DNA of 32,118 nt from a virus. Its lineage: Duplodnaviria > Caudoviricetes. The stretch covers positions 1-32,118 of IMG/VR virus record IMGVR_UViG_3300045284_000308; one strand, written 5' to 3'. How positions within the stretch are numbered: the first letter of the stretch is position 1; the number at the start of each line of letters is the position of its first letter. A program made the position numbers and the translations under genes. The notes under the pieces are model-generated. The model was not told where the DNA came from and ran no database searches. It was given only the letters and a program-made list of their open reading frames with translations. Positions 10,117-32,118 of this stretch are shown here, in pieces.

Positions 10117-10124
10117 GGTAGGCC

Positions 10125-10649: not shown

Positions 10650-10679
10650 TGAACATCCTTGCTCGCCGAGTCCGATGAT

Positions 10680-11123: not shown

Positions 11124-11128
11124 AGGCC

Positions 11129-11689: not shown

Positions 11690-11701
11690 AGGAGCTGATA
11701 T

Positions 11702-12321: not shown

Positions 12322-12328
12322 GCTTCCA

Positions 12329-12853: not shown

Positions 12854-12972
12854 TGTGCTCCTGCCTCTAATTGGTTTTGTCTTTCAGCAGATTTGCGCAG
12901 GTGCCCGGGGCCGGCGCAAAGGGAAAGAGTTGGCATTTCCCGCCAAAAGTTGTTTTTTGGCGCCAATCTGAC

Positions 12973-13515: not shown

Positions 13516-13521
13516 CCGTCG

Positions 13522-16413: not shown

Positions 16414-16414
16414 A

Positions 16415-16798
16415 ATGCCTGCCTATACGTTGCTCGCGATCGACGGCATCGACTTTTCTCAGTACGCCGTGCGCGGGATCACCATGACGCTCGCGCCGAT
16501 CGACCAAGCAGCGGCTTTGGCGCGCGATTGCCGCGGCGAACTCGCTGATATCTCGCTTGCACAGTTCCGACAATACAAGGTCAGCATCACCTGCACCGAC
16601 CATGAAGCCCCCGAGCTGACCGATGCGTGGCCAGGCACGGACATCACTATTACCTGTATTCCTGGCCTCGGTGCTGCCAACACGACCGGCGACGTGTTGA
16701 CCATTCTCGCCAAGGTGACGGCTTGGAATACATCGCGCGACGAGTGGGCGGCCGAGGTTGCGTGGACGCTTGAGGCACAGCAAAGGGTTATCGCCTAA
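16415..16798 (+). CDS. Probable distal tail protein
   Basis: Small beta-rich protein directly after the tape measure gene, with ATG at 16415. Its stop overlaps the next start (TAATG). Confidence 0.6.
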   Translation: MPAYTLLAIDGIDFSQYAVRGITMTLAPIDQAAALARDCRGELADISLAQFRQYKVSITCTDHEAPELTDAWPGTDITITCIPGLGAANTTGDVLTILAKVTAWNTSRDEWAAEVAWTLEAQQRVIA

Positions 16799-18792
16799 TG
16801 CCCGCCGGCATGCCGTACTTTGCCTGGATCGATCCTGGCGAGGACGTCTTCGGGCCAGGGCACATGCGTTGGGATGAGAACATCTTTTCATTCACGTTGA
16901 AGCAGGACGAGGGCGACCCGGCGAGCCTGACTGCGGTTGTCCGCCGACCGCGCAACGTGGATGGCGATCCGATCGGTCTGCTCGGGCCGGGCCGCAAGAT
17001 TTGGTGCTGGTTTGCTTTAGACTGCGGGCCGGACCTTATCCGCTTTCGTGGCCGCCTGGTCGGCGTGCCCACGAGCTTATTCGAGGAACTGGTGACACTC
17101 GAATTCGTGGCCCGGCCGATTGATCTCGTGGCGCAGAAAGCAGATTTGGCCGACACGTTGCGGGTGCTGCCGTATTACGACGAGGTGGTCATCGACGAGG
17201 CGCGGCGCACCGATCCGGAGGTCGTGCTCGAGGGCTATAGCGCGATCTGGCACTACGATCGCGAGACCCACGTCCTCAGCATCTCGGACGAAATCGACGG
17301 CGAAGACGGACTCGTCGAGTTCGACGGCGCCAGCGATGGCGGCAAGGTGCTCTATGACGGGCTCGGGCTTACGTTGACCAGCGGGCCGCTGTCGCGGGTC
17401 GATGTTACTGCCGAATACACCTGGACCCAACAAGCACGCGGGACGACCGATCTCACTCCAATCATTCTTGCCGGCTGGCCGAACGGCGTCATCACCTCAT
17501 ATTCTTTCACCGCCGACAATTGGCCGAAGGCGGGAGCAGGCATTGGCGATGGATGGGTCGTCACCGATTCAAGCGCGACGGCGCTTTACGATCTCACCGT
17601 TCACACCAAGACCGATGGCTCGACGCTTAAGGTAGATTTCGGCGATTCGAGTTTCAACACGACGTTCACCGAGACGAAATCTTTTTTGACTCCAGGCCCT
17701 CCGGCTGGCTCGATCAATCTCGGCACAGTCCTACTTAAGGACGACATCAAGGTCACCTATGGCGGCGGCGGCGAGGAGGCGATCAGAGCGACGTCTTACA
17801 GCCGTTCCTATTCAGACGTCAGCTCGTTCCTGCCGCTCAATTACACCAGAGCCACGCTGAGTGCTGCATACACGGCCAATCGGCAATGCACCGAACAGGT
17901 TTTGTTTTCCCTCTATGCCGACGTGCAGTCCATCCTCACCGATCCCGAGGATGGCGAGGCGTTGAGCATCACCGATATCAAATCTGTCAACTTGAGCGAA
18001 GCGATCGGTGAGGGCGCCGATGCTTATGTGCCGATCGGCAACACGGCGCGCCGGTCCTACATCGCGACCGAGCGCGGCAATCGCAGCCTCGAACACTTGA
18101 TCGCGGTTGCCCGAGCCAACATATTCAAACGCGCGCGGGTGGTCGAAATCGCGTTTGCACCCAAGCTCGAGCGCATGCCTGAAATCACCCTGCGCAAGAA
18201 CGGGTTCCTCGTCGAGCCGCGCGTCGGCGAGGCACTCGGCAAGATCATCGGGTATTCGCTGGCGCTTGATGGCAATGACGGTCAGATCAAATGCGAAATA
18301 CGCATTGGTTGCACCATCGGTCGCGGCGGCTCGGCGGTGGCATCCGGCGGGGAACCGACCTATTGCGACGTCGACTATTGCGGCGCCGATTATCAGGTCT
18401 TTACCGGGCGCATCGTCTTGTTCGACAGCTCGGTCGGCTATGCGCCGCCGGCATCGGACCCAAATGATGATGGTCTCGAATTGACTGGTGGTGGGCTGAC
18501 TGCAGGGCCTCATTTGCTTGCGACGCCGGTTGGCATCGAGAACCCGCCGGACGTCCAGCGGGCCCACATCATGAGCAATTTGGTGCCAAGTTCGCCGAAG
18601 CCGTCGAGCAGTGACGACGCTCGGCAAGCTATCGTCGCGGCGCGTGCTGAAGCGGTCAACAACGCGCTGGCCGAAGTCGAGACCAAGATCACATTCAAGC
18701 TCAAAAGCATGACTGGCGATTTCACCACCGAGTATGTGGTGCAGGTCACTGATGTGAAAGTGCCAGTCGGCTATGATCTTGAGGCAGCATGA
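16798..18792 (+). CDS. Tail-tip / baseplate hub protein
   Basis: 664 aa and beta-rich, with RFRGRLVG...VTLEF.ARP. Position after the Dit-like gene. Confidence 0.65.
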   Translation: MPAGMPYFAWIDPGEDVFGPGHMRWDENIFSFTLKQDEGDPASLTAVVRRPRNVDGDPIGLLGPGRKIWCWFALDCGPDLIRFRGRLVGVPTSLFEELVTLEFVARPIDLVAQKADLADTLRVLPYYDEVVIDEARRTDPEVVLEGYSAIWHYDRETHVLSISDEIDGEDGLVEFDGASDGGKVLYDGLGLTLTSGPLSRVDVTAEYTWTQQARGTTDLTPIILAGWPNGVITSYSFTADNWPKAGAGIGDGWVVTDSSATALYDLTVHTKTDGSTLKVDFGDSSFNTTFTETKSFLTPGPPAGSINLGTVLLKDDIKVTYGGGGEEAIRATSYSRSYSDVSSFLPLNYTRATLSAAYTANRQCTEQVLFSLYADVQSILTDPEDGEALSITDIKSVNLSEAIGEGADAYVPIGNTARRSYIATERGNRSLEHLIAVARANIFKRARVVEIAFAPKLERMPEITLRKNGFLVEPRVGEALGKIIGYSLALDGNDGQIKCEIRIGCTIGRGGSAVASGGEPTYCDVDYCGADYQVFTGRIVLFDSSVGYAPPASDPNDDGLELTGGGLTAGPHLLATPVGIENPPDVQRAHIMSNLVPSSPKPSSSDDARQAIVAARAEAVNNALAEVETKITFKLKSMTGDFTTEYVVQVTDVKVPVGYDLEAA

Positions 18793-19202
18793 GCGGCTTT
18801 GAAGTTGTCGTCCGGCCGGTTGTCTTTCCCAATATCCGGCCGCAGGCGCCGCGCGTTCTCGCGCCTGCGAGCGATCCCACCCAAGGCATCGCGACGATTG
18901 GCGGTAGCGGCGGGCGCGTGATCGATCTGCCGCACTCGTGGCAAGTGTCATCGTCGCATACGGTCGCACAGACTGAAACCGAGCGCACTTACGATGTGGA
19001 CCGGATTTATAAAAAGGACGATGGCGGCGTTATCGACGAGGACTCAGGGAGCTATGTCGATGTCGAGCGCATCAAAAAGGCCATCATGAAAGACCCAGAC
19101 GGGTCTGCTACAACGTATCATTATGCGGACCCGCCAACGGCGGACAACGTCAAGACCTTGCAGACAAACCTCGTGCGCAAATCGGACGGGCAGTCACCAT
19201 AA
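18789..19202 (+). CDS. Tail-associated hypothetical protein
   Basis: ATGA coupling with the upstream gene. N-terminus FEVVVRPVVFPNIRP. Confidence 0.7.
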   Translation: MSGFEVVVRPVVFPNIRPQAPRVLAPASDPTQGIATIGGSGGRVIDLPHSWQVSSSHTVAQTETERTYDVDRIYKKDDGGVIDEDSGSYVDVERIKKAIMKDPDGSATTYHYADPPTADNVKTLQTNLVRKSDGQSP

Positions 19203-19203
19203 A

Positions 19204-19998
19204 ATGACAATTGTATATGTCACCGATGGCGCCTGGGGTGGCGGCACCGGCACGCCCAATAGTGCCGCGCAAGTCGACGGCAGTTTCTGGGATCTCGACC
19301 AGCGCGTCGTCGCGCTGAACGCCGATCTTGCCGCCGGCAAGATGATCGAGAGCGTCACCTATACCGAAAGCTCGTTCACGTTCCACTTCACCGATGGAAC
19401 GTCGCAGGTCATTCTGCTGCCGGTGGCGACGTTGACGTTCGTCGGCGAATGGTCGAACTCGACACCCTATACTCGCGCCAACATTGTGAGCGTCAAAGGC
19501 CAGGGCATTTTCCAGGTCCTGCAAGATCACACCACGCCAGCACTGCCGGCCGTGTTCGACCCGGGCGCGGTGGACGGCAGCGGCAATCCGCTATATGCGC
19601 TTTGGGTTCCGATCGGCGATACCAATTACGACGCGGCGATTTTTGTACCTGGCACGGTCCAGCGCTCGGCCGGTGAGTTGTTGTTTGTCGGCATTGCCAA
19701 CCGGACCATGCATCTCGCCAACGGCAACGCGAACGCCTACGCCTATCTCGATGTCGGCGTCGCCACCGGCACCAACATCGTTATCTCGATACAGAAGAAC
19801 CGCACCGAGATCGGCACCGTCACATTTACGGTGGGCAGTGGGATCGACACCGCGGGCGGGCAAGTTGGGGCGGTCTATGTGGCAACGGCGACCGACTTTG
19901 CCGAAGGCGACCGCTATGCTCTGCGGGTGACGGCCTCGAACAACGCCGCGCCGTCCGGTCTGTCGGTGACGCTGCCGTTCCTGCGGACGGATATTTAA
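19204..19998 (+). CDS. Tail fibre-associated virion protein
   Basis: G.W..G.GT...AAQVD..FW.L N-terminus, a CBM-like segment GEWSNSTPY..ANIV and a beta-sandwich-like C-terminus. Confidence 0.7.
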   Translation: MTIVYVTDGAWGGGTGTPNSAAQVDGSFWDLDQRVVALNADLAAGKMIESVTYTESSFTFHFTDGTSQVILLPVATLTFVGEWSNSTPYTRANIVSVKGQGIFQVLQDHTTPALPAVFDPGAVDGSGNPLYALWVPIGDTNYDAAIFVPGTVQRSAGELLFVGIANRTMHLANGNANAYAYLDVGVATGTNIVISIQKNRTEIGTVTFTVGSGIDTAGGQVGAVYVATATDFAEGDRYALRVTASNNAAPSGLSVTLPFLRTDI

Positions 19999-20177
19999 TG
20001 GCGTCCGCCGGAAGCGGCTTCGCTCAGGACATTTTAACCCGCATCATCAATGTGCATTGGGCGACGGGCGGGCTTGCCGTTGAATTCGGCGATAAAGATC
20101 AGGACGCGCCTGGGATGGGATCGGTGGCATCAAGGTCAGTTGGGGTGGAGGCTCCCCGCAATCGGGAGAAGGCATGA
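19998..20177 (+). CDS. Small hypothetical protein (59 aa; absent from the ORF track)
   Basis: MASAGSGFAQDILTRIINVHWATGG...EKA*. It is coupled on both sides (TAATG and ATGA overlaps) and exactly fills the gap. Confidence 0.7.
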   Translation: MASAGSGFAQDILTRIINVHWATGGLAVEFGDKDQDAPGMGSVASRSVGVEAPRNREKA

Positions 20178-21751
20178 GCTATCTGCAAATCATCAGCGGC
20201 ATCCCGAATTTTTCCAAGGCTGTGATCTCGTTCTGGTTTCGATGCCCGAAAGAGACCATGGCAAAAGCCTATGACAATAGCACGTCCATAGACTTGTTGG
20301 CATTCGGTGGTCGGCAAACAAATCAACGTCTAGTTGGCACGACTTTGGAAAAAACGATGAACGTTCAGTATTGGAAGAACTCGGGTCCGAGTACACCGTA
20401 TTTTTCGGTGTCTCCGGTTATGCAACAGTTTCTTGGTAACGATTCAATTCTTACTGAAGCTGCTGAGCCAATTAAAGTTCCGCCGTGTTTGTTCTACCTG
20501 GATACGAATGGTGACGTCCTCATTTTTCATATCGATCTGCAACTGAGTAAGTCGGGGACTGGCGCAGGAATCGCGTTCACATCGACGATCGACGCTACGA
20601 CTACCCTGAACGCAGTGACTCCTCCCAACGGTATCCCGACCATCACCGACGATTACGGCACCACTTTGGGGTACCAACCGCCGCCGTTTCATGTCGATCA
20701 CCAAAGCACCGACGTTACCGAACAAATATTAGATGCGAGCAACGATAGTTTCCTCATCGGAGGATCGATGGTTGGCCTCGAAGGAAGTCGTTCATGCTTG
20801 GTAACGCCAGACGAATGGCATCATGTGTTGTTCTCCATCGACATGGGCGGAAAGATGCAGGCGAACGGTACTTTGTTTTCTACGATAGTTACTCAAGGAG
20901 CCGATCCCCCTTATGAGCGGGTCGTGGATACACCTCCAGCAATCTCATCTATTTGTAAAGTGTGGCTTGCCATCGACGACGAAAACGTCTTCGGACAAAG
21001 TCTTACTGGGGCATTTCCTGAAATGGGGCTCGACAAAAATGATCTAGTATCGCGGCAGACGCTTAATGCTTGGCACGCCGGTAATACAAATAATTACACC
21101 ACGCACAGCTTTGCACAATCCATCACGGAGGGTCATTCCGGTTTTGGGTTCTGGGAAGAAGCTTACAAAGGAAATGACATATTACCGAGTTACAGCTTAA
21201 GCGGCGCTCGGCTTGAGACAGACGGGAAACCTATCGGTATTCCATCGACCAAGGAGTGGGGGATCGATGAACTGCCGGGTTCGATCCTTCGTAGCGAGAT
21301 GGCCGAGTTCCAGATGTGGACTGACGTCACGCTCGACACCGCTGTCGAGATCAACCGCCGTGCCTTCATCGATTACGAGCGCGACGGCAATGGCCACCCG
21401 GTCAGGGACAACGATGGAAATTTCACATTGATGCCGGTCAAGCCGGAAGGACAACCTGCGACAGATGACCGGCCAGTGCAGCCGGCGCCGGCAGAGAAGT
21501 TGTTGGGAAAGAAACCGGAAATCCTGCTGCACGGCAGCAACAATTGGATCGATGGCAAGAATACGGGGACCACAGGTTTCGACTACAGCACCGATCCTCC
21601 GACAGTAAAGCCAATCGGGCAATTCAATCGGACTGGTGGGATCAAAAAATATACCCCTGACCCAAGCCTAAAACAAAATCCGCCTCCACCTGGCAGCAGT
21701 CGCAAGGCTCGGCCGGCGCTGACCAAGAAGCCTGCGGATGCTCGTCTGTAA
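20174..21751 (+). CDS. Putative receptor-binding protein, LamG/concanavalin-like
   Basis: AVISFWFR, DEWHHVLFSID and MAEFQMW are the three LamG-like strand motifs. The interior has lower GC. Confidence 0.6.
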   Translation: MSYLQIISGIPNFSKAVISFWFRCPKETMAKAYDNSTSIDLLAFGGRQTNQRLVGTTLEKTMNVQYWKNSGPSTPYFSVSPVMQQFLGNDSILTEAAEPIKVPPCLFYLDTNGDVLIFHIDLQLSKSGTGAGIAFTSTIDATTTLNAVTPPNGIPTITDDYGTTLGYQPPPFHVDHQSTDVTEQILDASNDSFLIGGSMVGLEGSRSCLVTPDEWHHVLFSIDMGGKMQANGTLFSTIVTQGADPPYERVVDTPPAISSICKVWLAIDDENVFGQSLTGAFPEMGLDKNDLVSRQTLNAWHAGNTNNYTTHSFAQSITEGHSGFGFWEEAYKGNDILPSYSLSGARLETDGKPIGIPSTKEWGIDELPGSILRSEMAEFQMWTDVTLDTAVEINRRAFIDYERDGNGHPVRDNDGNFTLMPVKPEGQPATDDRPVQPAPAEKLLGKKPEILLHGSNNWIDGKNTGTTGFDYSTDPPTVKPIGQFNRTGGIKKYTPDPSLKQNPPPPGSSRKARPALTKKPADARL

Positions 21752-22238
21752 CGTTAGCCTGCTGCAACGGCGGGCGGCAATCGCGGTCGATCTCGCCGAG
21801 GCTGCTGCGGCGCTGGACACGCCAGGCACCGGCAACGTCGTCTTCGCCACGCTCGTCGACGACCCGGCGTCGGTGGGCGACCACGTCGATGCATTCCTCG
21901 GGCAGATCATGCTGGAGGCGGCGAGCGCCAGTTCGACCGTCACCGCTGGACTCGCTTACGCGGCCGCGATCGTAGAGGCGGCAACCGCGATCGATGCGGC
22001 TTCCGCTTCTCGCCAGACGAGTGACGCGGTGGCAGAAACGGTTGCCGCCGATTCCGCGCAAGACGCCACGGTGGTGTCCGCACCCATTGTGAGCGGAACG
22101 GTGACCGAGGCGGCGAGCGCGGCTGACTTGGTGAATGCTTCTGTGACTGCTGGCCTGATCTTTGGCGGCATGCTCGCGCTCGACGGGCCGATCATGCCAG
22201 GCGCGACGGCGCCGGCTGTAATTTATATCGAGGGGTAA
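21738..22238 (+). CDS. Ala-rich virion hypothetical protein
   Basis: Recurrent E.A.A.D motifs; overlaps the upstream stop. Confidence 0.65.
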   Translation: MLVCNVSLLQRRAAIAVDLAEAAAALDTPGTGNVVFATLVDDPASVGDHVDAFLGQIMLEAASASSTVTAGLAYAAAIVEAATAIDAASASRQTSDAVAETVAADSAQDATVVSAPIVSGTVTEAASAADLVNASVTAGLIFGGMLALDGPIMPGATAPAVIYIEG

Positions 22239-22242
22239 GACC

Positions 22243-24039
22243 TTGGCCTTCGCTGACACCACTTGGTACGTAAATGCTGGAAATCAGTCTTCGACTGGTT
22301 ACTACGCAGTGCCGCAATTTGCCGCCTCGACTGCTTACTCGGCCGGTCAATTAGTTCGCCAACTCACCGCTCCGACGGTTGGCAACGAGCGTGTGTTCGT
22401 CGTCATTATTGCTGGCACGAGCAGCACCGAGCCGTCGTGGACAGTAACGCGCGGCGCGAAGAACACATCCGGCGGCGTGACCTTTCAGGAATGCACTGGC
22501 GCGGCGTCTTTAAATGGAGATGCCACCAACACGCCGAACTGGACTGCGCAGAAGGCGGCAGGCAATCCGACGCTCGGCGCCATAATCAAAAGGAACAACG
22601 GCGCCAGCTATCAGATTTGCTCGACGGCCGGCACGCTGGGCGCGTCCGAGCCGGCATTCAGTGACACTGCTGGCACGACGACGACTGAAGGCACGACCAC
22701 ATGGACTTCGCTCGGCCCGGTTTCCGGTTTCACCGGCGGGCAGGCTCCATTCGCCAGGCTTGCAAGCGTGTTCGGATCGAACTGGTTCGCGGCGGGCAAC
22801 ACGGTCTACGTCGGCGACAACCACGCCGAGTCACAGACGACGACGATCAACATTTCACCCACACTATCCAATACGACTATGGGCCGGATACTCTGTCACA
22901 ATCATTCCGGTAGCTACCCGCCTGCCAGTTCGGATTTGACTGCGGGGGCGACGGTTTCAACGACGGCTGCGGCCAGTATTAATTTCAGTCCTTCGGGGGG
23001 CGGAATCTATGTTCGCGGCATCGGGCTCATAGCCGGTGCCGGACAATCAACCAGCGCGTCTGTGCTTTTGGGGCCAACCGGTGCTTTTTACTACTTTGAC
23101 AATTGTCTTTTTAAAGTCGCCACTACTTACCAATTTGCAGGTATGCAAATCAACACCAACACCGCAGGCGTCGTCATATGGAATAATTGCACTGCCTATT
23201 TCGGGCATGCAGGACAATACATCAATCTAGGTGTTGCCCTCTTCACCTGGCAAAATACCGGAGCAATTCTCGCCAGCGGGTCGTCGGTGCCTACTGGGCT
23301 ATTTGGACAAGGTAGCAACAATCAGTTGGGCAACATCACGTTGGAGGCCATTGATCTTAGCCAATTTACGGGTGCTATCGATAAACAAGCATCTAGTTAT
23401 CAGATGGGTAATTGGCTGCTCAAGGATTGCAAGCTCAATGCGTCGATGACGATCCCGACACCGTTGGCTTTCGGGCAAACCATTCAACTCGTTCGTTGCG
23501 ACAGCGGCGCCACTGCTTACAAATCCGCACGCTACCTCTACGAAGGTACCGAGACCACCGAGACTTCGATCACCCGTGTCGGCGGCGCAGCCGATCCCAC
23601 CGGGCAGGCGCAGTCGCGCAAGATCGTCACCACAGCGAACTCACAATGGCTGCGGCCGTTCAAGGCCGAGCCTTACGCGATTTGGAACGCGGTTACAGGC
23701 GCCAATGTCACGGTCACGGTCTACGGCACCATCAACGCGGGTGCGTTGCCTTTCAATGACGACATCTGGTTGGAGGTGGAATACCTCAGTGCGTCCGGGT
23801 CGCCGCTGGGTACGATAGTCACGACGACCAAGGCCAGCGTGCTCGCTGCCAACGCTGCGGTGGCATCCGATAGCTCAACCTGGAACGGCGGCGGCAGCGG
23901 CGCCGGCTGGACGCCCTTCAAGCTCGTCGCCACGTTGTCTTCACCGCAGCCCGGTCTCGCCGGCTACCTGCACGCGCGGGTGCGAGCGGCGAAGCCGAGC
24001 ACGACGTACTACCTCGATCCCCAGATCGTCCTGACCTGA
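22243..24039 (+). CDS. Tail fibre / spike-like protein
   Basis: Two AGT...EP.(W/F)...T.G.(V/T)T(F/W) repeats, a Thr/Gly/Ser/Asn-rich beta-helix-like middle of lower GC, and C-terminal YYLDP. TTG start with RBS GAGGGG. Confidence 0.7.
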   Translation: MAFADTTWYVNAGNQSSTGYYAVPQFAASTAYSAGQLVRQLTAPTVGNERVFVVIIAGTSSTEPSWTVTRGAKNTSGGVTFQECTGAASLNGDATNTPNWTAQKAAGNPTLGAIIKRNNGASYQICSTAGTLGASEPAFSDTAGTTTTEGTTTWTSLGPVSGFTGGQAPFARLASVFGSNWFAAGNTVYVGDNHAESQTTTINISPTLSNTTMGRILCHNHSGSYPPASSDLTAGATVSTTAAASINFSPSGGGIYVRGIGLIAGAGQSTSASVLLGPTGAFYYFDNCLFKVATTYQFAGMQINTNTAGVVIWNNCTAYFGHAGQYINLGVALFTWQNTGAILASGSSVPTGLFGQGSNNQLGNITLEAIDLSQFTGAIDKQASSYQMGNWLLKDCKLNASMTIPTPLAFGQTIQLVRCDSGATAYKSARYLYEGTETTETSITRVGGAADPTGQAQSRKIVTTANSQWLRPFKAEPYAIWNAVTGANVTVTVYGTINAGALPFNDDIWLEVEYLSASGSPLGTIVTTTKASVLAANAAVASDSSTWNGGGSGAGWTPFKLVATLSSPQPGLAGYLHARVRAAKPSTTYYLDPQIVLT

Positions 24040-24046
24040 CCATCAA

Positions 24047-24646
24047 ATGGAGAAACCCATGACTGAGGAACGCGCCAACGCGCGCGAGCATAACGACGCG
24101 TCTGTTGTCCGCGGCAGTGGCCTCGGCGAGCAGGCCGAGGCGCATGGCCGTTATGAGGTCGAATGCATCAGTGCGGACGGCAAACTCAAATGGCGTGACA
24201 CGATCGAAAACGTCGTGCAGACGGTCGGTAAGAATTTGGCGCTCGATACTTTCCTGGCCGGATCGGCATACACCGTGGTCGGGCCCTACATGGGCCTGAT
24301 CTCGTCGGTGTCCTACACGACGGGTCCGGCGGCCGGCGACACGATGGCGTCGCATTCGGGATGGCTTGAGGCCGGCGGCACCAACGCGCCGACTTATTCC
24401 GGCAACCGCAAAACCGCAGTTTGGTCGGCGGCAGCATCGGGATCGAAGGCGTTATCGGCGGCGCTGTCGTTTGCGATTACGAGCACGGGCACCGTCAAGG
24501 GCGCGTTCCTTTGCTTCGGCTCAGGCGCGGTCGCCACCAAGGACGACACCAACGGTGTGTTGTGGTCGGCGGGCACGTTCTCGACCGGCGATAAGTCGGT
24601 CGTGAATGGGGACACTCTCAATGTAAATTACTCGACGAGCCTTTGA
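24047..24646 (+). CDS. Conserved-looking virion protein (tail fibre-associated)
   Basis: GRY.VEC...G.LKW.D...N.V...GKN..LD and VVNGDTLNVNY motifs. The start could be 24047 or 24059 (GGAG RBS). Confidence 0.7.
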   Translation: MEKPMTEERANAREHNDASVVRGSGLGEQAEAHGRYEVECISADGKLKWRDTIENVVQTVGKNLALDTFLAGSAYTVVGPYMGLISSVSYTTGPAAGDTMASHSGWLEAGGTNAPTYSGNRKTAVWSAAASGSKALSAALSFAITSTGTVKGAFLCFGSGAVATKDDTNGVLWSAGTFSTGDKSVVNGDTLNVNYSTSL

Positions 24647-24659
24647 TAAGGAGGCGATC

Positions 24660-24887
24660 ATGTCCCTTGGTGGCATCTTGTTGGGAATCATCGACATCGC
24701 GATCGTCGTCGCGATCCTTTTGTTGGTGGGCGCGGTCATCATATGGTTCATGTCGTGGATGGGGCAAAGCGTGCCTCCGAACGTGCAGAAAGGGTATATG
24801 ATCGTGGTCGCCCTCGTCGGGCTCTACATGCTGGTCGCCCTATTGCTCGGCATCCCGTCGGTCCACCTCATCGGGGCTGTAAGGTAG
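24660..24887 (+). CDS. Small two-TM membrane protein (holin candidate)
   Basis: RBS AAGGAGG, two hydrophobic helices, upstream of the endolysin. Confidence 0.65.
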   Translation: MSLGGILLGIIDIAIVVAILLLVGAVIIWFMSWMGQSVPPNVQKGYMIVVALVGLYMLVALLLGIPSVHLIGAVR

Positions 24888-24891
24888 CCAA

Positions 24892-25119
24892 ATGGTCGCG
24901 GAGGAAGTCGCCAAGGTCGCGACGTCAACTTTGGAGGCGATGAAGTCGACGCCGCTCGCGATCGCGCTGCTGGTCGTCAACGTCGGCTTTCTCAGCTTCG
25001 CCGCCTATGTGCTGGGCGAGGTCGCCGCCAACGCCAGCGAGCGCAACAAGTCGCAGCTTGAGCTGATCAGCAATCTTGTCAGAGACATTCGCGACTGTCG
25101 GCAAGGACCGCCGACATGA
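24892..25119 (+). CDS. Small single-TM protein (lysis cassette)
   Basis: TM segment PLAIALLVVNVGFLSFAAYVL followed by a short amphipathic helix ending in ...RDCRQGPPT. Confidence 0.65.
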   Translation: MVAEEVAKVATSTLEAMKSTPLAIALLVVNVGFLSFAAYVLGEVAANASERNKSQLELISNLVRDIRDCRQGPPT

Positions 25120-25205
25120 GTTCGCTCGACTGGCGCGCTGTCCTGTTCGGCATGCTCGCGATTGGCGCGGTCGTGATCATTCTGGTGATCTTGTTTGGAG
25201 TTTGA
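25116..25205 (+). CDS. 29-aa single-TM peptide (absent from the ORF track)
   Basis: MSSLDWRAVLFGMLAIGAVVIILVILFGV*. ATGA overlap, RBS AAGGA, and it ends 3 nt before the endolysin start. Confidence 0.6.
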   Translation: MSSLDWRAVLFGMLAIGAVVIILVILFGV

Positions 25206-25208
25206 ACC

Positions 25209-26201
25209 ATGACTGCATATAGCCGCATCGTTATCTCGTCCGGTCACGGCAAGCATGTGCGCGGTGCTTCCGGCATCATCGACGAGGTCGACGAGGCGAG
25301 GCGCGTGGTCGAACAGTTGGCCGACGAGCTGCAAGCCAGGGGCATCGACGTGAAGGCGTTTCACGACGACACCAGCCATTCGCAAAACGAAAACCTCCAC
25401 ACCATCGTTGATTATCACAACAAACAGACCCGCGACCTAGACATCAGCGTGCATTTCAATGCCTATGAGCAGGTGTCAAAACCGATGGGGACCGAGGTAC
25501 TTTATGTGACGCAGAGCGCGCTTGCCGGGCAAGTGTCGGCGGCGATCGCGTCGTCCGGCTTCGTCAACCGCGGTGCGAAAAAACGTACTGACCTGTTTTT
25601 CCTCAACAACACGGAGATGCCGGCGATCCTGCTCGAGGTCTGTTTCGTCGATAGCGAGGCCGACTGCGATATCTATGCGGATCAATTCGATGCAATCTGC
25701 AGTGCGATTGCCGACGTGCTCGGCGGTGAGGATGATGCGGGTATTGATCGCCCGCCGCGGCCACCGTCGCCTGGTGAGGACGAGGCACTGCTGCACGTTA
25801 CCGGCAAGGTCTCGCATTTCGGCGGACCCGACGACACTGGGGTTTCATCCAGCGAAGGGCTCGCTTTTATCCACGATATCGACGAGCACAGCCAACATCT
25901 GTTCCTGCCGATGCAGCCTGCGGGAACGACCGGGCTCGCGCGCCGGCTCAATGAACATGTGCATTATATCGCCTGCCGGTGGGACTATGATGTAACGCCG
26001 AAAGAAATGTTGCGCACATCCGGGCAGGTCGCGTTGGTGCGCTCGCCAGACACTGAGATTGCACTGACGGCGTTTCCGGCTGACTGGGGCCCGAACGAGA
26101 CCACCGGCCGCGTGGCCGACCTCTCGCCGAGCCTTATGGCCGATCTCGGTATTACGACTGACGATGAGGTCGAGGTTATCTATCCGTATCCCAAAGCCTG
26201 A
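25209..26201 (+). CDS. Endolysin: N-acetylmuramoyl-L-alanine amidase (Amidase_3) with a C-terminal DPBB/RlpA-like domain
   Basis: ISSGHG, E, ISVHFNA, GTEV, NRGAK, LFFL..T.MPAILLEVCFVDS. After a Pro linker come DWGP...GRVADLS..L..DLG motifs. Confidence 0.92.
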   Translation: MTAYSRIVISSGHGKHVRGASGIIDEVDEARRVVEQLADELQARGIDVKAFHDDTSHSQNENLHTIVDYHNKQTRDLDISVHFNAYEQVSKPMGTEVLYVTQSALAGQVSAAIASSGFVNRGAKKRTDLFFLNNTEMPAILLEVCFVDSEADCDIYADQFDAICSAIADVLGGEDDAGIDRPPRPPSPGEDEALLHVTGKVSHFGGPDDTGVSSSEGLAFIHDIDEHSQHLFLPMQPAGTTGLARRLNEHVHYIACRWDYDVTPKEMLRTSGQVALVRSPDTEIALTAFPADWGPNETTGRVADLSPSLMADLGITTDDEVEVIYPYPKA

Positions 26202-26224
26202 TCGAATTGTCTCGCCTCGTCAGT

Positions 26225-26262
26225 CCAGACGTGACGATCATCGCGCCGGCGCCCATCATGGC
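26225..26262. repeat. 38-bp direct repeat, copy 1 (35/38 identical to 27694-27731)
   Basis: ccagacgtgacgatcatcgcgccggcgcccatcatggc. Confidence 0.9.
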
Positions 26263-26546
26263 CGCTTGAACAGGACGGCGAACCCCCAAGTAAGCGAACC
26301 GCCGATCCACACCAGCAACAACGCTATTGCGTTCAAAACGCCCTGCGCCCGACCCGTAATCACAACCTCAAGTCCAAGAAAAAGGCATGGCAGACCGAAC
26401 AAGACCTGATGCATCCAAAAGATTACGAAGAGTGTGCGCCCTGGTGTGACTTTTTCTGAAAGGTAAAAAGGACAGAACGGTTCTTCACACAATGGGTTTT
26501 GATCGTCAATTTGCTCGCCGCATTTGCTGCACTTGGTCAGGGCCAT
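26256..26546 (-). CDS. Zinc-ribbon-containing membrane protein
   Basis: MALTKCSKCG...LCEEPFCP followed by two TM helices. Confidence 0.65.
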   Translation of the reverse strand: MALTKCSKCGEQIDDQNPLCEEPFCPFYLSEKVTPGRTLFVIFWMHQVLFGLPCLFLGLEVVITGRAQGVLNAIALLLVWIGGSLTWGFAVLFKRP

Positions 26547-26561
26547 AACTGTTTTGTTGCC

Positions 26562-26732
26562 TTATCCGAACACTTTAACGAAGGCGATGGCGGCACCGAA
26601 CAGAGCCGCGCCCGCAGTCATGAACGTTAGCGCCATCTGCCATGGCGCAAACTTGATTTCCTGTCGCTTGCGATCGTGATCGGCCAGAGCGTTGTCTATA
26701 TCAGCGAGGACTGATTTCAGTAGATCGGACAT
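26562..26732 (-). CDS. 56-aa protein with a C-terminal TM helix (absent from the ORF track)
   Basis: MSDLLKSVLADIDNALADHDRKRQEIKFAPWQMALTFMTAGAALFGAAIAFVKVFG*. TGATG coupling to the upstream HTH gene. Confidence 0.65.
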   Translation of the reverse strand: MSDLLKSVLADIDNALADHDRKRQEIKFAPWQMALTFMTAGAALFGAAIAFVKVFG

Positions 26733-26938
26733 CAAACCACCACTCGACGCCTTCCATTTGGCTTTGATCCGATCTGCTTGAGATGGAGTGCGAGCAATTG
26801 GGCGATCGGTTTGGGGATGGGACGTTCTCCGATCGCGTAGCCTGCCGAAGTACGATGGCAGACGCCGAGCAAGTCGCCAGCCTCACGTTGCGACAGGCCG
26901 AGCGTTTTCAGGGCGACCTTGTACTGGTGTGAGGTCAT
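26732..26938 (-). CDS. Small XRE/Cro-like HTH DNA-binding protein
   Basis: MT..QYK.ALK.LGLSQ.EAG.LLGV..RT...YA.GE.PIP..IA.LL. Confidence 0.8.
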   Translation of the reverse strand: MTSHQYKVALKTLGLSQREAGDLLGVCHRTSAGYAIGERPIPKPIAQLLALHLKQIGSKPNGRRRVVV

Positions 26939-27020
26939 TGGTTTTCCAAACTTTCGAGTCATCATTGTCCGGCATGTCCTCAGTTGCCATTTTGTGGTTC
27001 CTGTTTGTACCGAGGCGAGG

Positions 27021-27545
27021 TTATTGGGTTGCTTTTGCTCGTTCGACGACGACAATCTGAGCGAGCCCCGTGGCTGTTGCCGATATCCACCAGCATTTGT
27101 CGCTGGTCGCTGGCTTCAGGCAGTAATTAGCAGTGTGGAACATCGAGTGTTCGTTGCCGCTAATGTCTTTCTGCTGCACGGTGAATCGGACATTCTTATC
27201 CGGCGCCCACTCACAGGAGTAAGCTTGGGCCATCGCAGACTTTTGTCCGGCCTTCTCGGCCTTGATAGCCTTCCATGTGTCGTTATTGATGCGCATGGTT
27301 TGCCTTAGTTGTTGTTCACCGACGAGGTAGACAATTTCCATGTCGCTCCGCTTCGCACACATGATCGTGGAGGCGGGATATTGAACGGTCACTACGTTCC
27401 CCACCTCGGCAGCTTCGGCTGCAGTTTTGGCTGCAGTTTTGGCTGCAGTTTTCGTTGTGTTCCCGCTTCCAGATGAGAAGCCGCCAATGACGACAGCAAA
27501 CCCAAGTAGGACGAGCACGGGGACCAGCAATCTTTCAAAACTCAT
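27021..27545 (-). CDS. Exported / membrane-anchored hypothetical protein with a (KTAA)3 repeat
   Basis: N-terminal hydrophobic segment, four Cys residues, lower GC. Confidence 0.7.
   Translation of the reverse strand: MSFERLLVPVLVLLGFAVVIGGFSSGSGNTTKTAAKTAAKTAAEAAEVGNVVTVQYPASTIMCAKRSDMEIVYLVGEQQLRQTMRINNDTWKAIKAEKAGQKSAMAQAYSCEWAPDKNVRFTVQQKDISGNEHSMFHTANYCLKPATSDKCWWISATATGLAQIVVVERAKATQ
27417..27452. repeat. 12-bp tandem repeat GGCTGCAGTTTT x3
   Basis: Three perfect copies, in frame in the 27021-27545 gene. Confidence 0.9.
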
Positions 27546-27680
27546 TGTGTTTCTCGTTCATCTTGGGCGTGGGCGGAACTGCCCGGTGCCGTGACCGCAA
27601 CATATGCACACGTCGCATATATGTAAAAGTTGCATAGTTGTTCAAGCCGGCCAGAAAGTTGACCTTCGCTGCCAAAGTCT

Positions 27681-28230
27681 TCAATTGCTGCGGCCAGAAG
27701 TAACGATCATCGCGCCTGCGCCCATCATGGCAATGCCGAGCACGAGCGCGACCATAGTCGGCAGCAGTGACGGTGGGTGGCGGCGGTCCATGGCGGCCGG
27801 CCCGATCTGGCCGTCGTCGATGGGGACATCGCGACGCAGAGGGCCGGTAGGTGCGACCACCGCCGCGTCCGATACTAGTCCTCGATAGAATTCCGTCCAG
27901 TCGCTCGCGGGCCAGCGTTCGCCGATCGTGATCAGCAACGCGCCCGCTTCGGCCTGGGCGGGCACTGGTGCGGCCGGCGGCCGAGTGGGGCGGGTTGTAG
28001 CCTGCGCTCGATCCGCCGCAGCCTGGCGCGCCTCTGCGGGCCAGTAGAGATCAGTCTTGGCCAGGCGTCGGCGGCCTGGGTACCAGCAGCGCCGCCCGTC
28101 CACCTCACGCCACGAATAGTATCCGGAGCCACTCTTGTGCGCTGCGCACTCGATCGCGGTAGCGGCGCGGGCGGGTTCGGCACCGGCGAGTGCGGCTAGG
28201 ACGGCGGCCAGGATTGCCGTTCTCGCTCCG
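27681..28230 (-). CDS. Exported protein with a C-terminal TM anchor; start codon unclear (possible pseudogene)
   Basis: Signal-like RTAILAAVLAALAGAEPARA, motif C...YYSWREVDGRRCWY.G...L.W, Pro/Ala linker and C-terminal TM. The ORF-track extension to 28469 crosses attP and is probably not coding. Confidence 0.55.
27694..27731. repeat. 38-bp direct repeat, copy 2
   Basis: ccagaagtaacgatcatcgcgcctgcgcccatcatggc. Confidence 0.9.
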
Positions 28231-28248
28231 TTTCTGATCCCGAATTCC

Positions 28249-28504
28249 TGGGGCGGTTTCTGGGGCGGTTTCTGCGGCCGTTGGGGCGGTTTTAATGTTT
28301 TGTTCGGGGTTTTACCCCATGTGGCGTTTTCGCCCCACTGGCCGTAAACCCTTTGATTTGTTAGGTGATTTTTGGTCGGAGCGGCGAGATTTGAACTCGC
28401 GACCCCCAGTCCCCCAGGCTTGCGCGCCGGAACCAAATCAGCACGACGGCGCAAAGGGTTAGGTCTCATCGGTCAAATCCGTGGGGCGGTTTCTGGGGCG
28501 GTTT
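28249..28504. repeat. Probable integrase arm-type sites: TGGGGCGGTTT direct repeats flanking the att core
   Basis: Perfect copies at 28249, 28261 and 28282 (left) and at 28482 and 28494 (right), with a degenerate copy at 28273. Confidence 0.75.
28373..28417 (-). mobile_element. attP: attP core: 3' half of tRNA-Pro(GGG), from the anticodon loop to CCA
   Basis: The minus strand reads CTGGGGG-ACTGG-GGGTC-GCGAG-TTCAAAT-CTCGC-CGCTCCG-ACCA. There is no tRNA 5' half upstream, and a tyrosine integrase lies about 1 kb away. Confidence 0.88.
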
Positions 28505-28546
28505 TGGTCAGAGCAATTACCATTTGGCTTCTTCAAATGGGTGGGG

Positions 28547-28885
28547 TCAAAAGATTCCTCCGCGCTCGCTGGCCTTTTTGGCCGCGGTCTCACCAAGGAT
28601 AAATTCCACATCGATGACATCGCCGTCCCTTAGCTCGTGCCAGTGCTCTTGGATGTAGTTGTGGGCGACACGGTGCGTGCGCGGGTTTGCCGGCCAGTCA
28701 TAGCAATCGTAGGCAACGCCCCGGCACTGCGCTTTGATGTAGATGATGCAGGACTCGCTTGGATCGCCTCGGTAACCGTCGCGTCTGAGCAGATAGCGCT
28801 GCTCCTCGTTCACCGGCACCGGCCGAATGCATATCACCGGAACGAACGTGCCGCTGTCGCGAACCTCCAGACATTTTGTTTCCAT
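28547..28885 (-). CDS. Hypothetical phage protein (112 aa)
   Basis: RBS GAAGGA supplied by the upstream repeat. Globular composition with EVRD.GTF.PV, LLRRDGY and DGDVIDVEFILGE. Confidence 0.75.
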   Translation of the reverse strand: METKCLEVRDSGTFVPVICIRPVPVNEEQRYLLRRDGYRGDPSESCIIYIKAQCRGVAYDCYDWPANPRTHRVAHNYIQEHWHELRDGDVIDVEFILGETAAKKASERGGIF

Positions 28886-29116
28886 TTATCCCACATCCTT
28901 CAATTTGGCTTTGGGAGGTTGGGGCGGTTTGCGCTTGTCCCTGCGTTCGATTTCAATGAGCTGCCGAATACGCTGAAGAATGTTTATTGAATGCGTGGGC
29001 CGACCTTCCACCTCACCACCAGCCGTGGTGACGATGGCAGCTATGGTGCCACGCAGCGCCTCATTTTCCTCAAATAGTCTGAGGGCTTCCATTCGCATTT
29101 CATGATCTGTGGTCAT
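28886..29116 (-). CDS. Hypothetical protein ending KAKLKDVG
   Basis: TGATG coupling, RBS GAAGGA and short coiled coils. Confidence 0.7.
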   Translation of the reverse strand: MTTDHEMRMEALRLFEENEALRGTIAAIVTTAGGEVEGRPTHSINILQRIRQLIEIERRDKRKPPQPPKAKLKDVG

Positions 29117-29382
29117 CACAGCACATCCTTCAATTTTGCTTTGGGCGCCTTGCGGCGTTCCTTTGCCAGCCGGTCGGCAATATTTTTCAAAACCGTTAGC
29201 AAGTCATCGTAAGCGAGGGCCTTCTCGATCAGATGTTCGACCTCGCGCGAGATCGTGCGACCGCTCTCCTTCATCGCCGCGAGTAGCCTCTCCTTGGTAT
29301 TGCCGCCGATGATGACGCCGATCTGGGTGCGCTCGCCTTTCGGCACTTTCTTGATAGGACGGCCGCCTTGGTGCTGTGCCAT
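29116..29382 (-). CDS. Arc/TraY-like ribbon-helix-helix DNA-binding protein ending KAKLKDVL
   Basis: GRP...RTQIGVII (strand), TKERLLAAMKESGRTISREVEHLIE (helix-G-R-helix). Confidence 0.75.
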   Translation of the reverse strand: MAQHQGGRPIKKVPKGERTQIGVIIGGNTKERLLAAMKESGRTISREVEHLIEKALAYDDLLTVLKNIADRLAKERRKAPKAKLKDVL

Positions 29383-30542
29383 CACCCCACATCCTTCAAT
29401 TTAGCCCTGGGCGCCTTGCGGCGTTCTTGCGCCAGCCGCTCGACCACGTCGGCGACCTCGTCGCCGAGGAGGTGCGCATAGGTGCGCAGCGTGATCGCGA
29501 TGTCGGAATGGTCGAGCGCCGCCGATACGACCTTGATGCCCGCGGCGCCCTCAACCGCGCGCAGTGCCTTACTGGCAAAGTCATGGCGCAGGTCGTGAAA
29601 GCGAAACCGGTTCTCGCCGGTCAGCAAGCCGGCTTCCGCGCGTATCGTATTCCAGACCCGCTTGAGCCCGTCCTTAGTGATCGGGTAACGCTCGCCCTTG
29701 ACGAAGACGTGGCGCTTGCCGCGGATCACCTTGTCGATCGTGCGCTCGGCCACGAACGTGAACACGCGGCTCGGATGATGCCCGCGCAACGGCCAGAGCA
29801 GCTCGCGGACTACGGGCGCGATCTTGATTGAGATCGGCTTGCCGCCGCCGGTGCCCTTGCCCTTGATCTCGATCACGCCGCGGTCCCAATGGACCTGGCT
29901 CCATTCGAGCGTGATGCAGTTGTCCTTGCGCTTGGCGACGGTGCGGGCGAACTCGATCAGCGGCCAATAATCCGGCCGGCATTTGGCGATCGCGGCGTCA
30001 AGGCGCTCGCTTTCGCTGGCGCTTAGTTCGCGCACGTGCTCGCGCGGCTCGTCGAGCCAGAGGTCTTTCCATCGCGGCTCGCATGGGAAGGTCGCGCCGC
30101 CTGTCTTGCAATACGTGAATAGCTTCTTGAGTTGTTCGATGGTGTCGTTGACGGTGTAGGCCGACACGCGCTGCGCGTTCTTGCCGTTGGCCGTCTGGGC
30201 GCGGCGCCAGCGCCGCAGCGCCAAGGTATCGTCGTGGGTGATCTCGCTCAAGGGTTTGAGCGGCCCAAAATGATGCAGCAAAAGCTTGACCAGCCGGTCG
30301 GTATTGTCGGCGCCGGCATGATGGTCGCCGACGTCGAGCATGTAGCGCGCGGCCACGTCGCCGAGCTGCAGCGAGGCCCCGGCTTGCGCCTCGGCCTTGA
30401 ACTGCGCAATCAGTCCGTCCCGATGCCGCTCAGCAGCTTTTTGCGCCTCGCGCTTATCTGTGATTCGCGAAGTAAAACTATATTTTTTCCCCTCGACCCA
30501 GATGTCCGCGCGGTAGTTTTTCCCGTTCTTGTAGACTCGCAA
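29382..30542 (-). CDS. int: Tyrosine recombinase / phage integrase
   Basis: Catalytic R (AKRKDN), K (IKGKG), FRFHDLRHDFAS and LDHSDIAITLRTYAH. The N-terminal beta-rich arm-binding-like domain starts at TTG. Confidence 0.95.
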   Translation of the reverse strand: MRVYKNGKNYRADIWVEGKKYSFTSRITDKREAQKAAERHRDGLIAQFKAEAQAGASLQLGDVAARYMLDVGDHHAGADNTDRLVKLLLHHFGPLKPLSEITHDDTLALRRWRRAQTANGKNAQRVSAYTVNDTIEQLKKLFTYCKTGGATFPCEPRWKDLWLDEPREHVRELSASESERLDAAIAKCRPDYWPLIEFARTVAKRKDNCITLEWSQVHWDRGVIEIKGKGTGGGKPISIKIAPVVRELLWPLRGHHPSRVFTFVAERTIDKVIRGKRHVFVKGERYPITKDGLKRVWNTIRAEAGLLTGENRFRFHDLRHDFASKALRAVEGAAGIKVVSAALDHSDIAITLRTYAHLLGDEVADVVERLAQERRKAPRAKLKDVG

Positions 30543-30727
30543 GTGCGCCTCCGTTTCCGCCGCTCGATAAAGGCATCCAGATCGGTCTGGTCGAACATCA
30601 TGCGCGGCCGTTTCTTGCCGCGGCCGGTGTTGACGAAAGTCAGTTCCCCGTCATGGACGAACCCCCAGACCTGGTCGACCGTACACCGCAATTGCATAGC
30701 GACTTCCTTCGGTCTTAACAGACTCAC
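30410..30727 (-). CDS. xis: Excisionase-like HTH protein
   Basis: RBS AGGAGG before GTG 30727. LLRPKEVA..L......V..GEL....G....R..FD..DLDAFIERR. Directly upstream of and overlapping int. Confidence 0.8.
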   Translation of the reverse strand: MSLLRPKEVAMQLRCTVDQVWGFVHDGELTFVNTGRGKKRPRMMFDQTDLDAFIERRKRRRTCESTRTGKTTARTSGSRGKNIVLLRESQISARRKKLLSGIGTD

Positions 30728-30745
30728 GACGCTACCTCCTTGCAT

Positions 30746-30865
30746 TGCCTTGCCTTGCCTCGCCCGGCCCAGCCACGCCTTGCCCTGCCTTGCCCGGCCG
30801 CGCCGTGCCGAGCCGCGCCAAGCCACGCCATGCCCAGCCTTGCCTTGCCTTGCCGAGCCTCGCCT
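30746..30865. repeat. Pentamer array (NGCCN)24
   Basis: 24 consecutive units with invariant GCC, variable 2-nt spacers and no indels. Confidence 0.95.
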
Positions 30866-30874
30866 ACTGAGAAC

Positions 30875-31396
30875 TCACGACGCAATCTCCACAGGTTTGG
30901 ATTTGTCCAAATAGCCGCCATGCAAGCGCGACACCGCATGCAGCCGGAAGCCTTGCTCGCGCAATTGCCCCTCAATGGCGGCGAAGTGCGCGCAGAACGG
31001 CGAGCGGCCGGCGTCAAGCATCGCAGCGAGTTTCCGCATGCCAGTGAACATCGTCGAGTGGTCGCGGTGATGTGCGCGTGCGATGCCGGCACACGACATC
31101 CAGACATACCGGGCGCATAATTTCATGCTGATCCAGCGCGCGATCGTGAGCCGTGTTCCCCGCACCGGGCTGATCAGCTCATCGACGCTGATCCCGAACC
31201 GCGCTGCGACCAATTGTTGGATTTCATAGATGCGTGGACGGCGCTTTTTGTTGTTGTGCGCAAAGAGCCCGCCAATCGGGGCGCATCGCTTCGGGCATTG
31301 CCCGTGGGCGTCCGCGACGCAATCGCCGCACCATAGGCCGCAGCGACAGTACTCGGTGTCAGTGGGATCGGTCGCCTTCCAGTAATCGTAGCCCAT
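30875..31396 (-). CDS. DnaA C-terminal-like HTH DNA-binding protein with a Cys-rich N-terminus
   Basis: IQQLVAARFGISVDELIS..R......AR.ISM.L......S...IAR..HRDHST......K. The N-terminus CRCGLWCGDC...C...C follows RBS GAGGA. Confidence 0.8.
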   Translation of the reverse strand: MGYDYWKATDPTDTEYCRCGLWCGDCVADAHGQCPKRCAPIGGLFAHNNKKRRPRIYEIQQLVAARFGISVDELISPVRGTRLTIARWISMKLCARYVWMSCAGIARAHHRDHSTMFTGMRKLAAMLDAGRSPFCAHFAAIEGQLREQGFRLHAVSRLHGGYLDKSKPVEIAS

Positions 31397-31411
31397 GGAT
31401 AATCTAATCCT

Positions 31412-31521
31412 CGCCTTGCCTAGCCTTGCCTAGCCTTGCCCAGCCCGGCCGCGCCTGGCCGCGCCCTGCCCCGCCTTGCCCTGCCGTGCCTTGCCGAGCC
31501 CCGCCGGGCCGCGCCTTGCCG
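31412..31521. repeat. Pentamer array (NGCCN)22
   Basis: 22 consecutive units with invariant GCC and no indels. Confidence 0.95.
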
Positions 31522-31525
31522 TGAA

Positions 31526-31566
31526 GAAAACCCGCCGAGCGATGCGGCCATGAACTCGGCGGGCTG
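31526..31566 (-). terminator. Probable intrinsic terminator downstream of the PEP-CTERM-like gene
   Basis: Stem CCCGCCGAG (31531-31539) / CTCGGCGGG (31556-31564), followed on the minus strand by TTTTCTT. The loop is long (16 nt). Confidence 0.55.
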
Positions 31567-31606
31567 TTTGCCGGCAGGCGGGGCAGGTGCCTACCGGCTC
31601 ACTTCG

Positions 31607-32118
31607 TTAGGTGTTGCGCCGCCGGCGCCGCCAGCCAAGGCCGAGCAGGCCAAAGCAGGCCGCGATCAGTCCGGGCAGTCCGGCGCCTGCGATGGGGCCG
31701 GGGACGGCGTTGACCGCGAACCCAAGCGCCTGGTTTGGCGCATTCACAGCGTCGGTCAGGACAGTGAGCGTGCAGGTCGGGCAATCGATCGATCCACCAG
31801 GTGCGCTGTCGGCGAGCTCGAGGTTCATGCGGTTGAGCAGCGCGGTGGGCAGATTAGCGAACACGATCGCCGCGCCATACTCCACGCGCCAGATGGCGAG
31901 CTGCGTTGCCGCGTCGTCCTGGTTGGCGTCGAGACCGCCCAGCGTCAGGCCGCGCAGCATCAGGCTAGCAATCTGCCGTAGCTGACCGCCATCAAAGCCG
32001 CCGGTAGGAAGTCCAGGAAAGGTCTGCCCAGCGCCGAGTTGATGCAATTGGAACGTGTAGGGTACAGTCAACAGATCATTCACGTCCAGGCACCAGACCA
32101 ATAGATCGGCGGTGGGAT
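31607..32118 (-). CDS. PEP-CTERM/VPLPA-like sorting-signal protein (5' truncated by the window edge)
   Basis: The C-terminus VPGPIAGAGLPGLIAACFGLLGLGWRRRRRNT is a signature, TM helix and Arg cluster. WCLD and QLAIW motifs are present. The frame is open to the window end. Confidence 0.75.
   Translation of the reverse strand, partial: PTADLLVWCLDVNDLLTVPYTFQLHQLGAGQTFPGLPTGGFDGGQLRQIASLMLRGLTLGGLDANQDDAATQLAIWRVEYGAAIVFANLPTALLNRMNLELADSAPGGSIDCPTCTLTVLTDAVNAPNQALGFAVNAVPGPIAGAGLPGLIAACFGLLGLGWRRRRRNT

Follow-up and report, generated by a model that had tools for sequence, protein, structure and literature searches.

Two GGC-NN repeat arrays in a temperate tailed phage as predicted VIPR guide arrays

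The locus and its phage

The window, i.e., the whole analysed stretch of DNA, a virus record of 32,118 bases, belongs to a temperate tailed phage in which terminase, portal, capsid, amidase, and integrase were recognized with Pfam. The terminase is 74-88% identical to copies in the genomes of Bradyrhizobium and soil Alphaproteobacteria, and two relatives of the integrase bear the name Xanthobacteraceae. Because of these identities and names, the host probably belongs to the Xanthobacteraceae group. No relative of the integrase was found in the GTDB genomes and none of the DnaA C-terminal-type (DnaA-C-type) gene in JGI metagenomes; Rfam and tRNA scans gave no match.

Near the right end, two arrays of GGC-NN pentamers enclose the DnaA-C-type gene, which has no Vipr profile match (Table 1). 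The excisionase-like gene xis lies directly 3' of the downstream array, and its tail overlaps the start of the integrase gene. The contig ends inside a gene, the C-terminus of which resembles a PEP-CTERM-type sorting signal. This gene is followed by two stacked hairpins (31521-31606, minus strand, z -5.62). A similar basic motif, K-A-P/K-x-K-L-K-D-V, ends the integrase and the next two ORFs (29116-29385 and 28886-29119, minus strand), which suggests short duplications or integration scars downstream of int.

Table 1. Features at the right end of the window.
Feature	Position	Strand	Evidence or assignment
Tyrosine integrase	29382..30542	-	PF00589 E 8e-17; phrog_1 E 2.8e-38
Excisionase-like HTH gene (xis)	30410..30727	-	PF12728 E 4.2e-6; phrog_66
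Downstream GGC-NN array, 24 units	30745..30864	-	Predicted vrRNA
DnaA C-terminal-type HTH gene, 173 aa	30875..31396	-	PF08299 E 1.6e-12
Upstream GGC-NN array, 22 units	31411..31520	-	Predicted VIPR guide RNA (vrRNA)
Intrinsic-terminator-like hairpin with U-rich tail	31521..31566	-	-24.4 kcal/mol, z -4.75, 0/200 shuffles as good
3' part of gene cut by contig end	31607..32118	-	Reading frame; no Pfam match

An earlier sequence-only reading had described the arrays as (NGCCN)n runs, and this description stands. The GCC triplet has a period of 5 nt, with 24 copies at 30747-30864 and 22 at 31413-31520, equal to the spans 30746-30865 and 31412-31521. Both arrays are fully in phase and free of indels, read GGC-NN on the minus strand, which is the strand of the neighbouring genes, and differ in spacer order, at most two consecutive NN units being common to both. 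From the GCC/GGC frequency of the window, the probability of such arrays by chance is roughly 1e-28, and no further array of this kind occurs anywhere in the window. Positions 31241-31547 are matched without any difference by a contig from the public run X1, possibly the source sample. The terminator-like hairpin noticed a few bases before the upstream array was likewise recovered, with a fold well beyond the shuffles (Table 1) and a stem that is kept in two sister phages; a simple terminator scan limited to loops of 3-8 nt found 0 terminators and missed this hairpin.

Likeness to VIPR guide RNAs and a protein family beside the arrays

Recent preprints describe VIPR as a CRISPR-related phage system comprising a RAMP protein and vrRNAs of 9-16 YNNGG repeats, the NN positions of which read DNA with a one-base skip and silence the transcription of competing phages; staggered vrRNA arrays are described in the legend of fig. 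S18, and vrRNAs are reported to lack self-targets (10.64898/2026.04.26.720920). One Vipr protomer binds each GGY/NN unit, with H17, D177, R138, W178, and R179 as G-reading residues, and Asp177 of SUSP1 is required for silencing (10.64898/2026.04.26.720927). In another preprint, 99 VIPR-like period-5 clusters were recovered (10.64898/2026.10.21.760802). The words DnaA and RecT are absent from the supplement PDF of the discovery paper (PMC13142463), and a literature search on GGCNN phage repeats gave no relevant paper by title and start of abstract.

The sequence-only reading knew of no characterised function for such arrays, a statement overtaken by these 2026 preprints, since the arrays match VIPR guide RNAs with their GGY/NN code and 1-nt skip. 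Its idea of a binding track for an oligomeric protein was right in outline, one Vipr protomer sitting on each RNA unit (10.64898/2026.04.26.720927), but it missed that NN is a gapped DNA-targeting code. With VIPR (PDB 36PP, SUSP1 Vipr) the arrays share GGY/NN pentamers with a fixed triplet and free NN, a phage-borne, intergenic position on the vipr strand, a Vipr homologue in a near-identical sister phage, and the lack of a self-target. Where vrRNA repeats are defined as four or more YNNGG units in a row that keep GGY and are hypervariable at NN, the window has 24 and 22 of them.

Several features differ from the published systems, and most of them count against the VIPR reading. The arrays, with 22 and 24 units, exceed the published 9-16 units per guide. 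An invariant structured 3' tail, the pseudoknot of type II, is lacking, as the sequences downstream of the two arrays differ and each array runs into a start codon within 16-20 nt. In the sister phage, arrays are scattered between unrelated early-operon genes, up to about 3 kb from vipr, and the Vipr has Thr for Asp177. Finally, no vap-like partner was found, no window protein falling in the 25 largest neighbour clusters; the DnaA-C-type gene, considered as a vap, was rejected for this reason. A second protein family does lie beside vipr in 17 of 80 loci (L046:2429-2977 and 16 others) and is probably a vap gene.

Bacillus TRAP, a protein unrelated to Vipr, binds about 11 (G/U)AG-NN leader repeats with one protein subunit per repeat; the spacers of these repeats are not known to carry a targeting code. 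The triplet with a 2-nt spacer and the one-subunit-per-repeat layout are shared with the TRAP leader, but the triplet is a different one. The longest (G/T)AG-NN run in the window comprises 2 units, on either strand, so the parallel drawn with TRAP is an analogy only and a TRAP-binding leader was rejected.

When IMG/VR was searched with a 12-unit pattern, 136 loci matched, and about 750 stored stretches are estimated for the whole collection; neighbours were analysed in the 80 loci with full flanks, from 69 distinct contigs. One protein family occurs beside the arrays, within about 3 kb, in 66 of these loci, corresponding to 55 of the 69 contigs; the other 14 have no vipr in the fetched flanks. 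Its profile matches PDB 36pp_D, 'SUSP1 Vipr protein', with E 1.5e-31, its alignment A1 (40 of the 66) has a C-terminal glycine-rich loop, and Pfam holds no model for it (0/40). Arrays in vipr-bearing loci lie on the vipr strand in 191 of 197 cases and on both sides of vipr in 19 of the 55 contigs. A phage-wide scan had been proposed earlier; it returned the strand bias and a co-occurring family, while placement relative to ribosome-binding sites proved loose (see below).

Strict phase, also claimed at first, is true of both window arrays but not of all relatives: among 212 related arrays, 38 continue into a run that is out of phase by -1, as in the staggered arrays of the discovery paper, and the ortholog of the upstream array in the sister locus L137 is split into 13+12 units by a +1 break. 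Long runs holding several guides are likewise found in staggered vrRNA arrays, from which the window arrays differ in having no phase shift, and guide boundaries are unmarked because of this. The upstream array may possibly represent two guides of about 11 units in tandem, and the 13+12 split in L137 suggests that both window arrays may consist of two guides. A slippage microsatellite, in which units should be near-identical, was rejected, since the 345 distinct arrays of at least 6 units together use every one of the 16 dinucleotides and the commonest, AA, accounts for 13%.

Sister phages and the predicted position of vipr

A profile search of all six frames found no Vipr in the window (best E 3.8). 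Three related phages were compared. G001 and G002 (loci L137 and L138) were found through the DnaA-C-type gene and are the same phage species by sequence; G003 (L139) was found through the excisionase. G002 is 100% identical to window positions 1-17000 and 99.5% identical to 16901-26186; overall, 87% of the window is covered at 99.3%; near the arrays, identity to L138 is 91-92%. G003 is more distant (37.5% of the window at 82%); it is 53 kb long, with direct terminal repeats, a CheckV completeness of 72%, and no vipr match. A search with the terminator plus array start matched only the two known sisters, and no Vipr was found in five host-like genomes.

In G002, a vipr gene lies at L138:548-1177 (E 2.6e-36; hhalign probability 99.8), with an exonuclease-type gene on one side and recT on the other. 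A Vipr with thumb and G-loop is recognized in both the neighbour family and the sister protein, 36pp_D being matched with the above profile E value and, for the single sequence, directly with E 0.002. Base 32118 of the window corresponds to L138:3258, and the vipr of L138 ends 2081 nt upstream of that base. Upstream of the cut gene, L138 carries an 18-unit array, a 122-aa gene, recT, a 20-unit array, vipr, and arrays of 38 and 8 units. The operon arrays (8+38, 20, 18, and 24 units) are on one strand, and all matches fall within about 3.7 kb. G001 is a fragment that begins inside recT, without a vipr match there, and is uninformative in this respect. Because the near-identical sister G002 has vipr at this place, the vipr of the window phage most likely lies about 2.1 kb past the contig cut.

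Taken with the array survey, these comparisons make it quite probable that the arrays are VIPR guide arrays of GGY/NN layout whose vipr is just off the contig. An otherwise unexplained repeat thereby becomes a predicted guide-RNA locus, and such arrays can lie kilobases from vipr or past a contig end. The mosaic right arm of the phage counts against vipr in cis. Identity to G002 is 99.5-100% up to 26186 and continues in patches beyond (26187-32118). The xis-int pair of the window matches that of G003 (87%), whereas G001 and G002 have a different one, and G003, with the xis-int of the window, is without vipr. The window leaves L137/L138 at 30927, inside the DnaA-C-type gene and shortly before the downstream array, and then follows L139; L137 and L138 have no array at the place of the downstream array.

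Orphan arrays offer another explanation. Phages and satellites that are vipr-null, 346 and 23 of them respectively, have been described as carrying solo vrRNAs (10.64898/2026.10.15.759431), and the window phage might have lost vipr, its arrays loading onto the Vipr of a co-infecting or resident element as decoys or redirectors. The window itself encodes no Vipr, and 14 of the 69 contigs in the survey have no vipr in their fetched flanks. G003, with its terminal repeats, has one 12-unit array (L139:5917-5976), 7 units of which are AA, before the same xis-int, i.e., at the place of the downstream array of the window; a different 255-aa ORF replaces vipr between yqaJ and recT. This array is a candidate solo or decaying vrRNA, and the window resembles F5 satellites and VIPR-null SUSP1-like phages in having arrays without vipr on the available sequence. 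However, the contig ends inside a gene, so that the absence of vipr is probably due to the contig end, and the closest relative, G002, has vipr 2.1 kb further on, G003 being far more distant. Guides of the window match no vipr genes or proteins above shuffles and no other vrRNA loci, and a SUSP1-type pseudoknot tail is lacking. Orphan guides are therefore regarded as unlikely, and as less likely than a vipr just off the contig.

The Vipr of the sister keeps R138 and R179 of SUSP1 and has Phe for W178 and Thr for D177. It belongs to a large clade (2365 proteins at E<=1e-10) in which Asp and Thr replace SUSP1 His17 and Asp177, respectively. In A1, the Asp177 place is occupied by T/S in 11 of 11 sequences with an FDR motif and by D/E in the 25 others scored (4 unscored), and all 120 closest homologues of the L138 Vipr (P0124-P0243) have Thr. 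The arrays beside the L138 Vipr are still GGC despite this Asp/Thr pair; therefore, G1 may be read differently.

A DnaA-C-type homologue (P0003) and a Vipr 90% identical to that of L138 (P0126) each occur on 7 contigs, the longest of 46,385 bases, which hints at a further relative carrying both genes.

Ribosome-binding sites and the enclosed gene

The two window arrays both end within 6 nt of a Shine-Dalgarno-like motif. For the downstream array this motif is AGGAGG, lying 6 nt beyond the final GGC and 7 nt ahead of the GTG of xis. At the upstream array it is GAGGA, which does abut the array; its distance to the ATG, however, is 11 nt, and both sister phages have GAGGG instead. Adjacency is thus true of the window and a mere tendency among relatives. 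When the distance from the end of an array cluster to a start preceded by a Shine-Dalgarno motif was measured in 103 clusters, it was at most 15 nt for 6 of them and at most 40 nt for 31; for random positions, the corresponding shares were 1.8% and 5.3%. These control positions are mostly coding, and therefore any intergenic element would look enriched near ribosome-binding sites. The adjacency of the arrays looks incidental.

The same figures bear on control in cis as the main function, by which a Vipr-like filament on the leader would block or free the ribosome-binding site or aid terminator read-through, NN being secondary. Consistent with this are the motifs at both array ends, the strong hairpin just before one array, and the excess within 40 nt. 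The composition of the controls and the small number of clusters within 15 nt weaken this case, no array precedes xis in L137/L138, all 16 NN types are in use, and NN is published as setting DNA specificity (10.64898/2026.04.26.720920). Control in cis is accordingly considered very unlikely as the main role.

The arrangement of two arrays around one gene had also been thought meaningful, and this did not survive comparison. The DnaA-C-type gene has 3 homologues among 57 candidates, is no recurrent partner of the arrays, and has an array on one side only in the sisters. Given the few homologues and the one-sided flanking, the arrangement is an accident of an operon with arrays in several intergenic gaps, and the gene is a bystander or passenger.

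Proposed mode of action and target searches

By analogy with the published systems, the predicted guide arrays probably direct a Vipr protein against competing mobile DNA so as to silence it. They would be transcribed with the minus-strand recombination and excision operon, the upstream array presumably requiring read-through of the terminator. If the second stacked hairpin terminates, the upstream array and xis-int would need read-through, which might confine them to lytic growth. Vipr protomers would then coat the RNA, one per unit, burying GGC and presenting NN, as is known for SUSP1 and P. fulva VIPR and assumed for the window. On double-stranded DNA, the NN pairs would recognize two bases and skip the third, and in the alphaproteobacterial host this could shut off the transcription of a competing phage, prophage, or satellite.

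Targets were sought with exact seeds or partial unit windows, so that the following results have low sensitivity and are no proof of absence. Within the window, the best self-matches were 16/20 and 17/24, in the range of shuffles for skips of 0, 1, and 2, which agrees with the lack of self-targeting. Guide matches were also at shuffle level on both strands of the fetched loci, which total about 0.49 Mb, and for nine guide arrays in the three sister genomes. In IMG/VR, four exact 8-unit seeds gave 18, 13, 13, and 17 stretches, the best of which matched 11/32, 9/28, 12/32, and 12/28 outside the seed. Two exact 9-unit seeds gave 18 and 34 stretches in the GTDB genomes (one stretch at a contig edge was unscored), with at best 13/30 and 9/26 outside the seed and none in the likely host family by title; one 10-unit seed gave 0 in JGI metagenomes. 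Among 401 genomes of the G004 family, two 12-unit patterns with up to 3 mismatches had 1 and 2 matches, against 0 for the reversed-pattern control; all of these host-family matches have 3 mismatches and none extends (27/48, 26/44, and 27/44), which is about chance level. A codon-level scan of 120 relatives of the window integrase and 120 Vipr proteins gave a lowest p of 0.1 of 40 shuffles for a window guide. Since no target was found in these searches, the DNA-targeting step is based on the published systems, not on the window locus.

Turnover of guide sequence

The orthologs of the upstream array in L137 and L138 follow the same terminator and share the same 3' flank. Their 300-nt flanks are identical to the window at 270-283 of 300 positions (90-94%), whereas just 2-5 of 22 NN units are equal, depending on the anchoring. 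Between L137 and L138, the 3' part of this ortholog is common and the 5' part differs (3/13 units), the next 18-unit array upstream being identical. Guide content thus changes faster than its flanks, probably by recombination between arrays. A block of 7 units in the downstream array (units 3-9; 30820-30854) is also present in the upstream array of each sister; AA makes up three of these units, and the next longest block common to any other fetched array comprises 5 units. In IMG/VR, blocks of at least 4 common units occur in 2.2% of 458 within-contig pairs, compared with 0.2% of 5882 sampled between-contig pairs, and a block of at least 5 units in only 3 of 48 multi-array contigs. Public runs gave an X2 contig with a 20-nt in-phase insertion at 30750, an X3 contig with two 5-nt insertions near 31516, and one X2 contig (depth 7) that runs from the 3' end of the DnaA-C-type gene through the start of the downstream array directly into the 3' part of the upstream one; these are single contigs of depths 4-28, matched at 82% likeness, and their joints may stem from other organisms or repeats. 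These patterns fit occasional recombination between arrays.

Recombination anchors for swapping the enclosed gene had been suggested from the start, and in its strongest form this idea makes the arrays mainly anchors or selfish repeats for cassette swapping, with no RNA function. As a side effect, such exchange has some support in the shared blocks, their within-contig excess, and the X2 joint, and the window does switch relatives shortly before the downstream array. Yet the crossover at 30927 is inside a gene and outside any array, the free NN positions reduce the homology that an anchor would need, and neither the link to Vipr nor the strand bias is accounted for. Arrays that are chiefly anchors are hence judged most improbable.

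Within the VIPR reading, a further idea can be put forward for the long, tail-less arrays in the yqaJ-recT operon of this phage. They might form a self-rewriting guide library in which NN blocks are copied or swapped between arrays and strains by the single-strand-annealing recombinase of the phage itself through GGC microhomology, and which is used by the Asp/Thr Vipr clade with its altered G-reading residues. This is possible, if doubtful, and a role of RecT in array exchange is speculation from gene order. If true, the library would give VIPR new guides without a Cas1-like acquisition module. The origin of new vrRNA sequence is left unanswered in the accessible parts of the 2026 VIPR preprints, and near-identical strains that differ in whether they carry vipr and whose guides have been rewritten offer a natural series for how vrRNAs gain it. 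The features that stand out here are this strain series, the length and dispersal of the arrays, and the Asp/Thr clade.

AA is commonest at the 3' end of arrays, where it makes up 20-25% of the final two units scored. For the AA excess, a diversity-generating retroelement mutagenizing a GGCAA template was considered, but among the common neighbours no reverse-transcriptase-like cluster was seen. Three loci, L095, L108, and L126, repeat a single NN throughout, either AA or AG, and represent true microsatellites or blank arrays.
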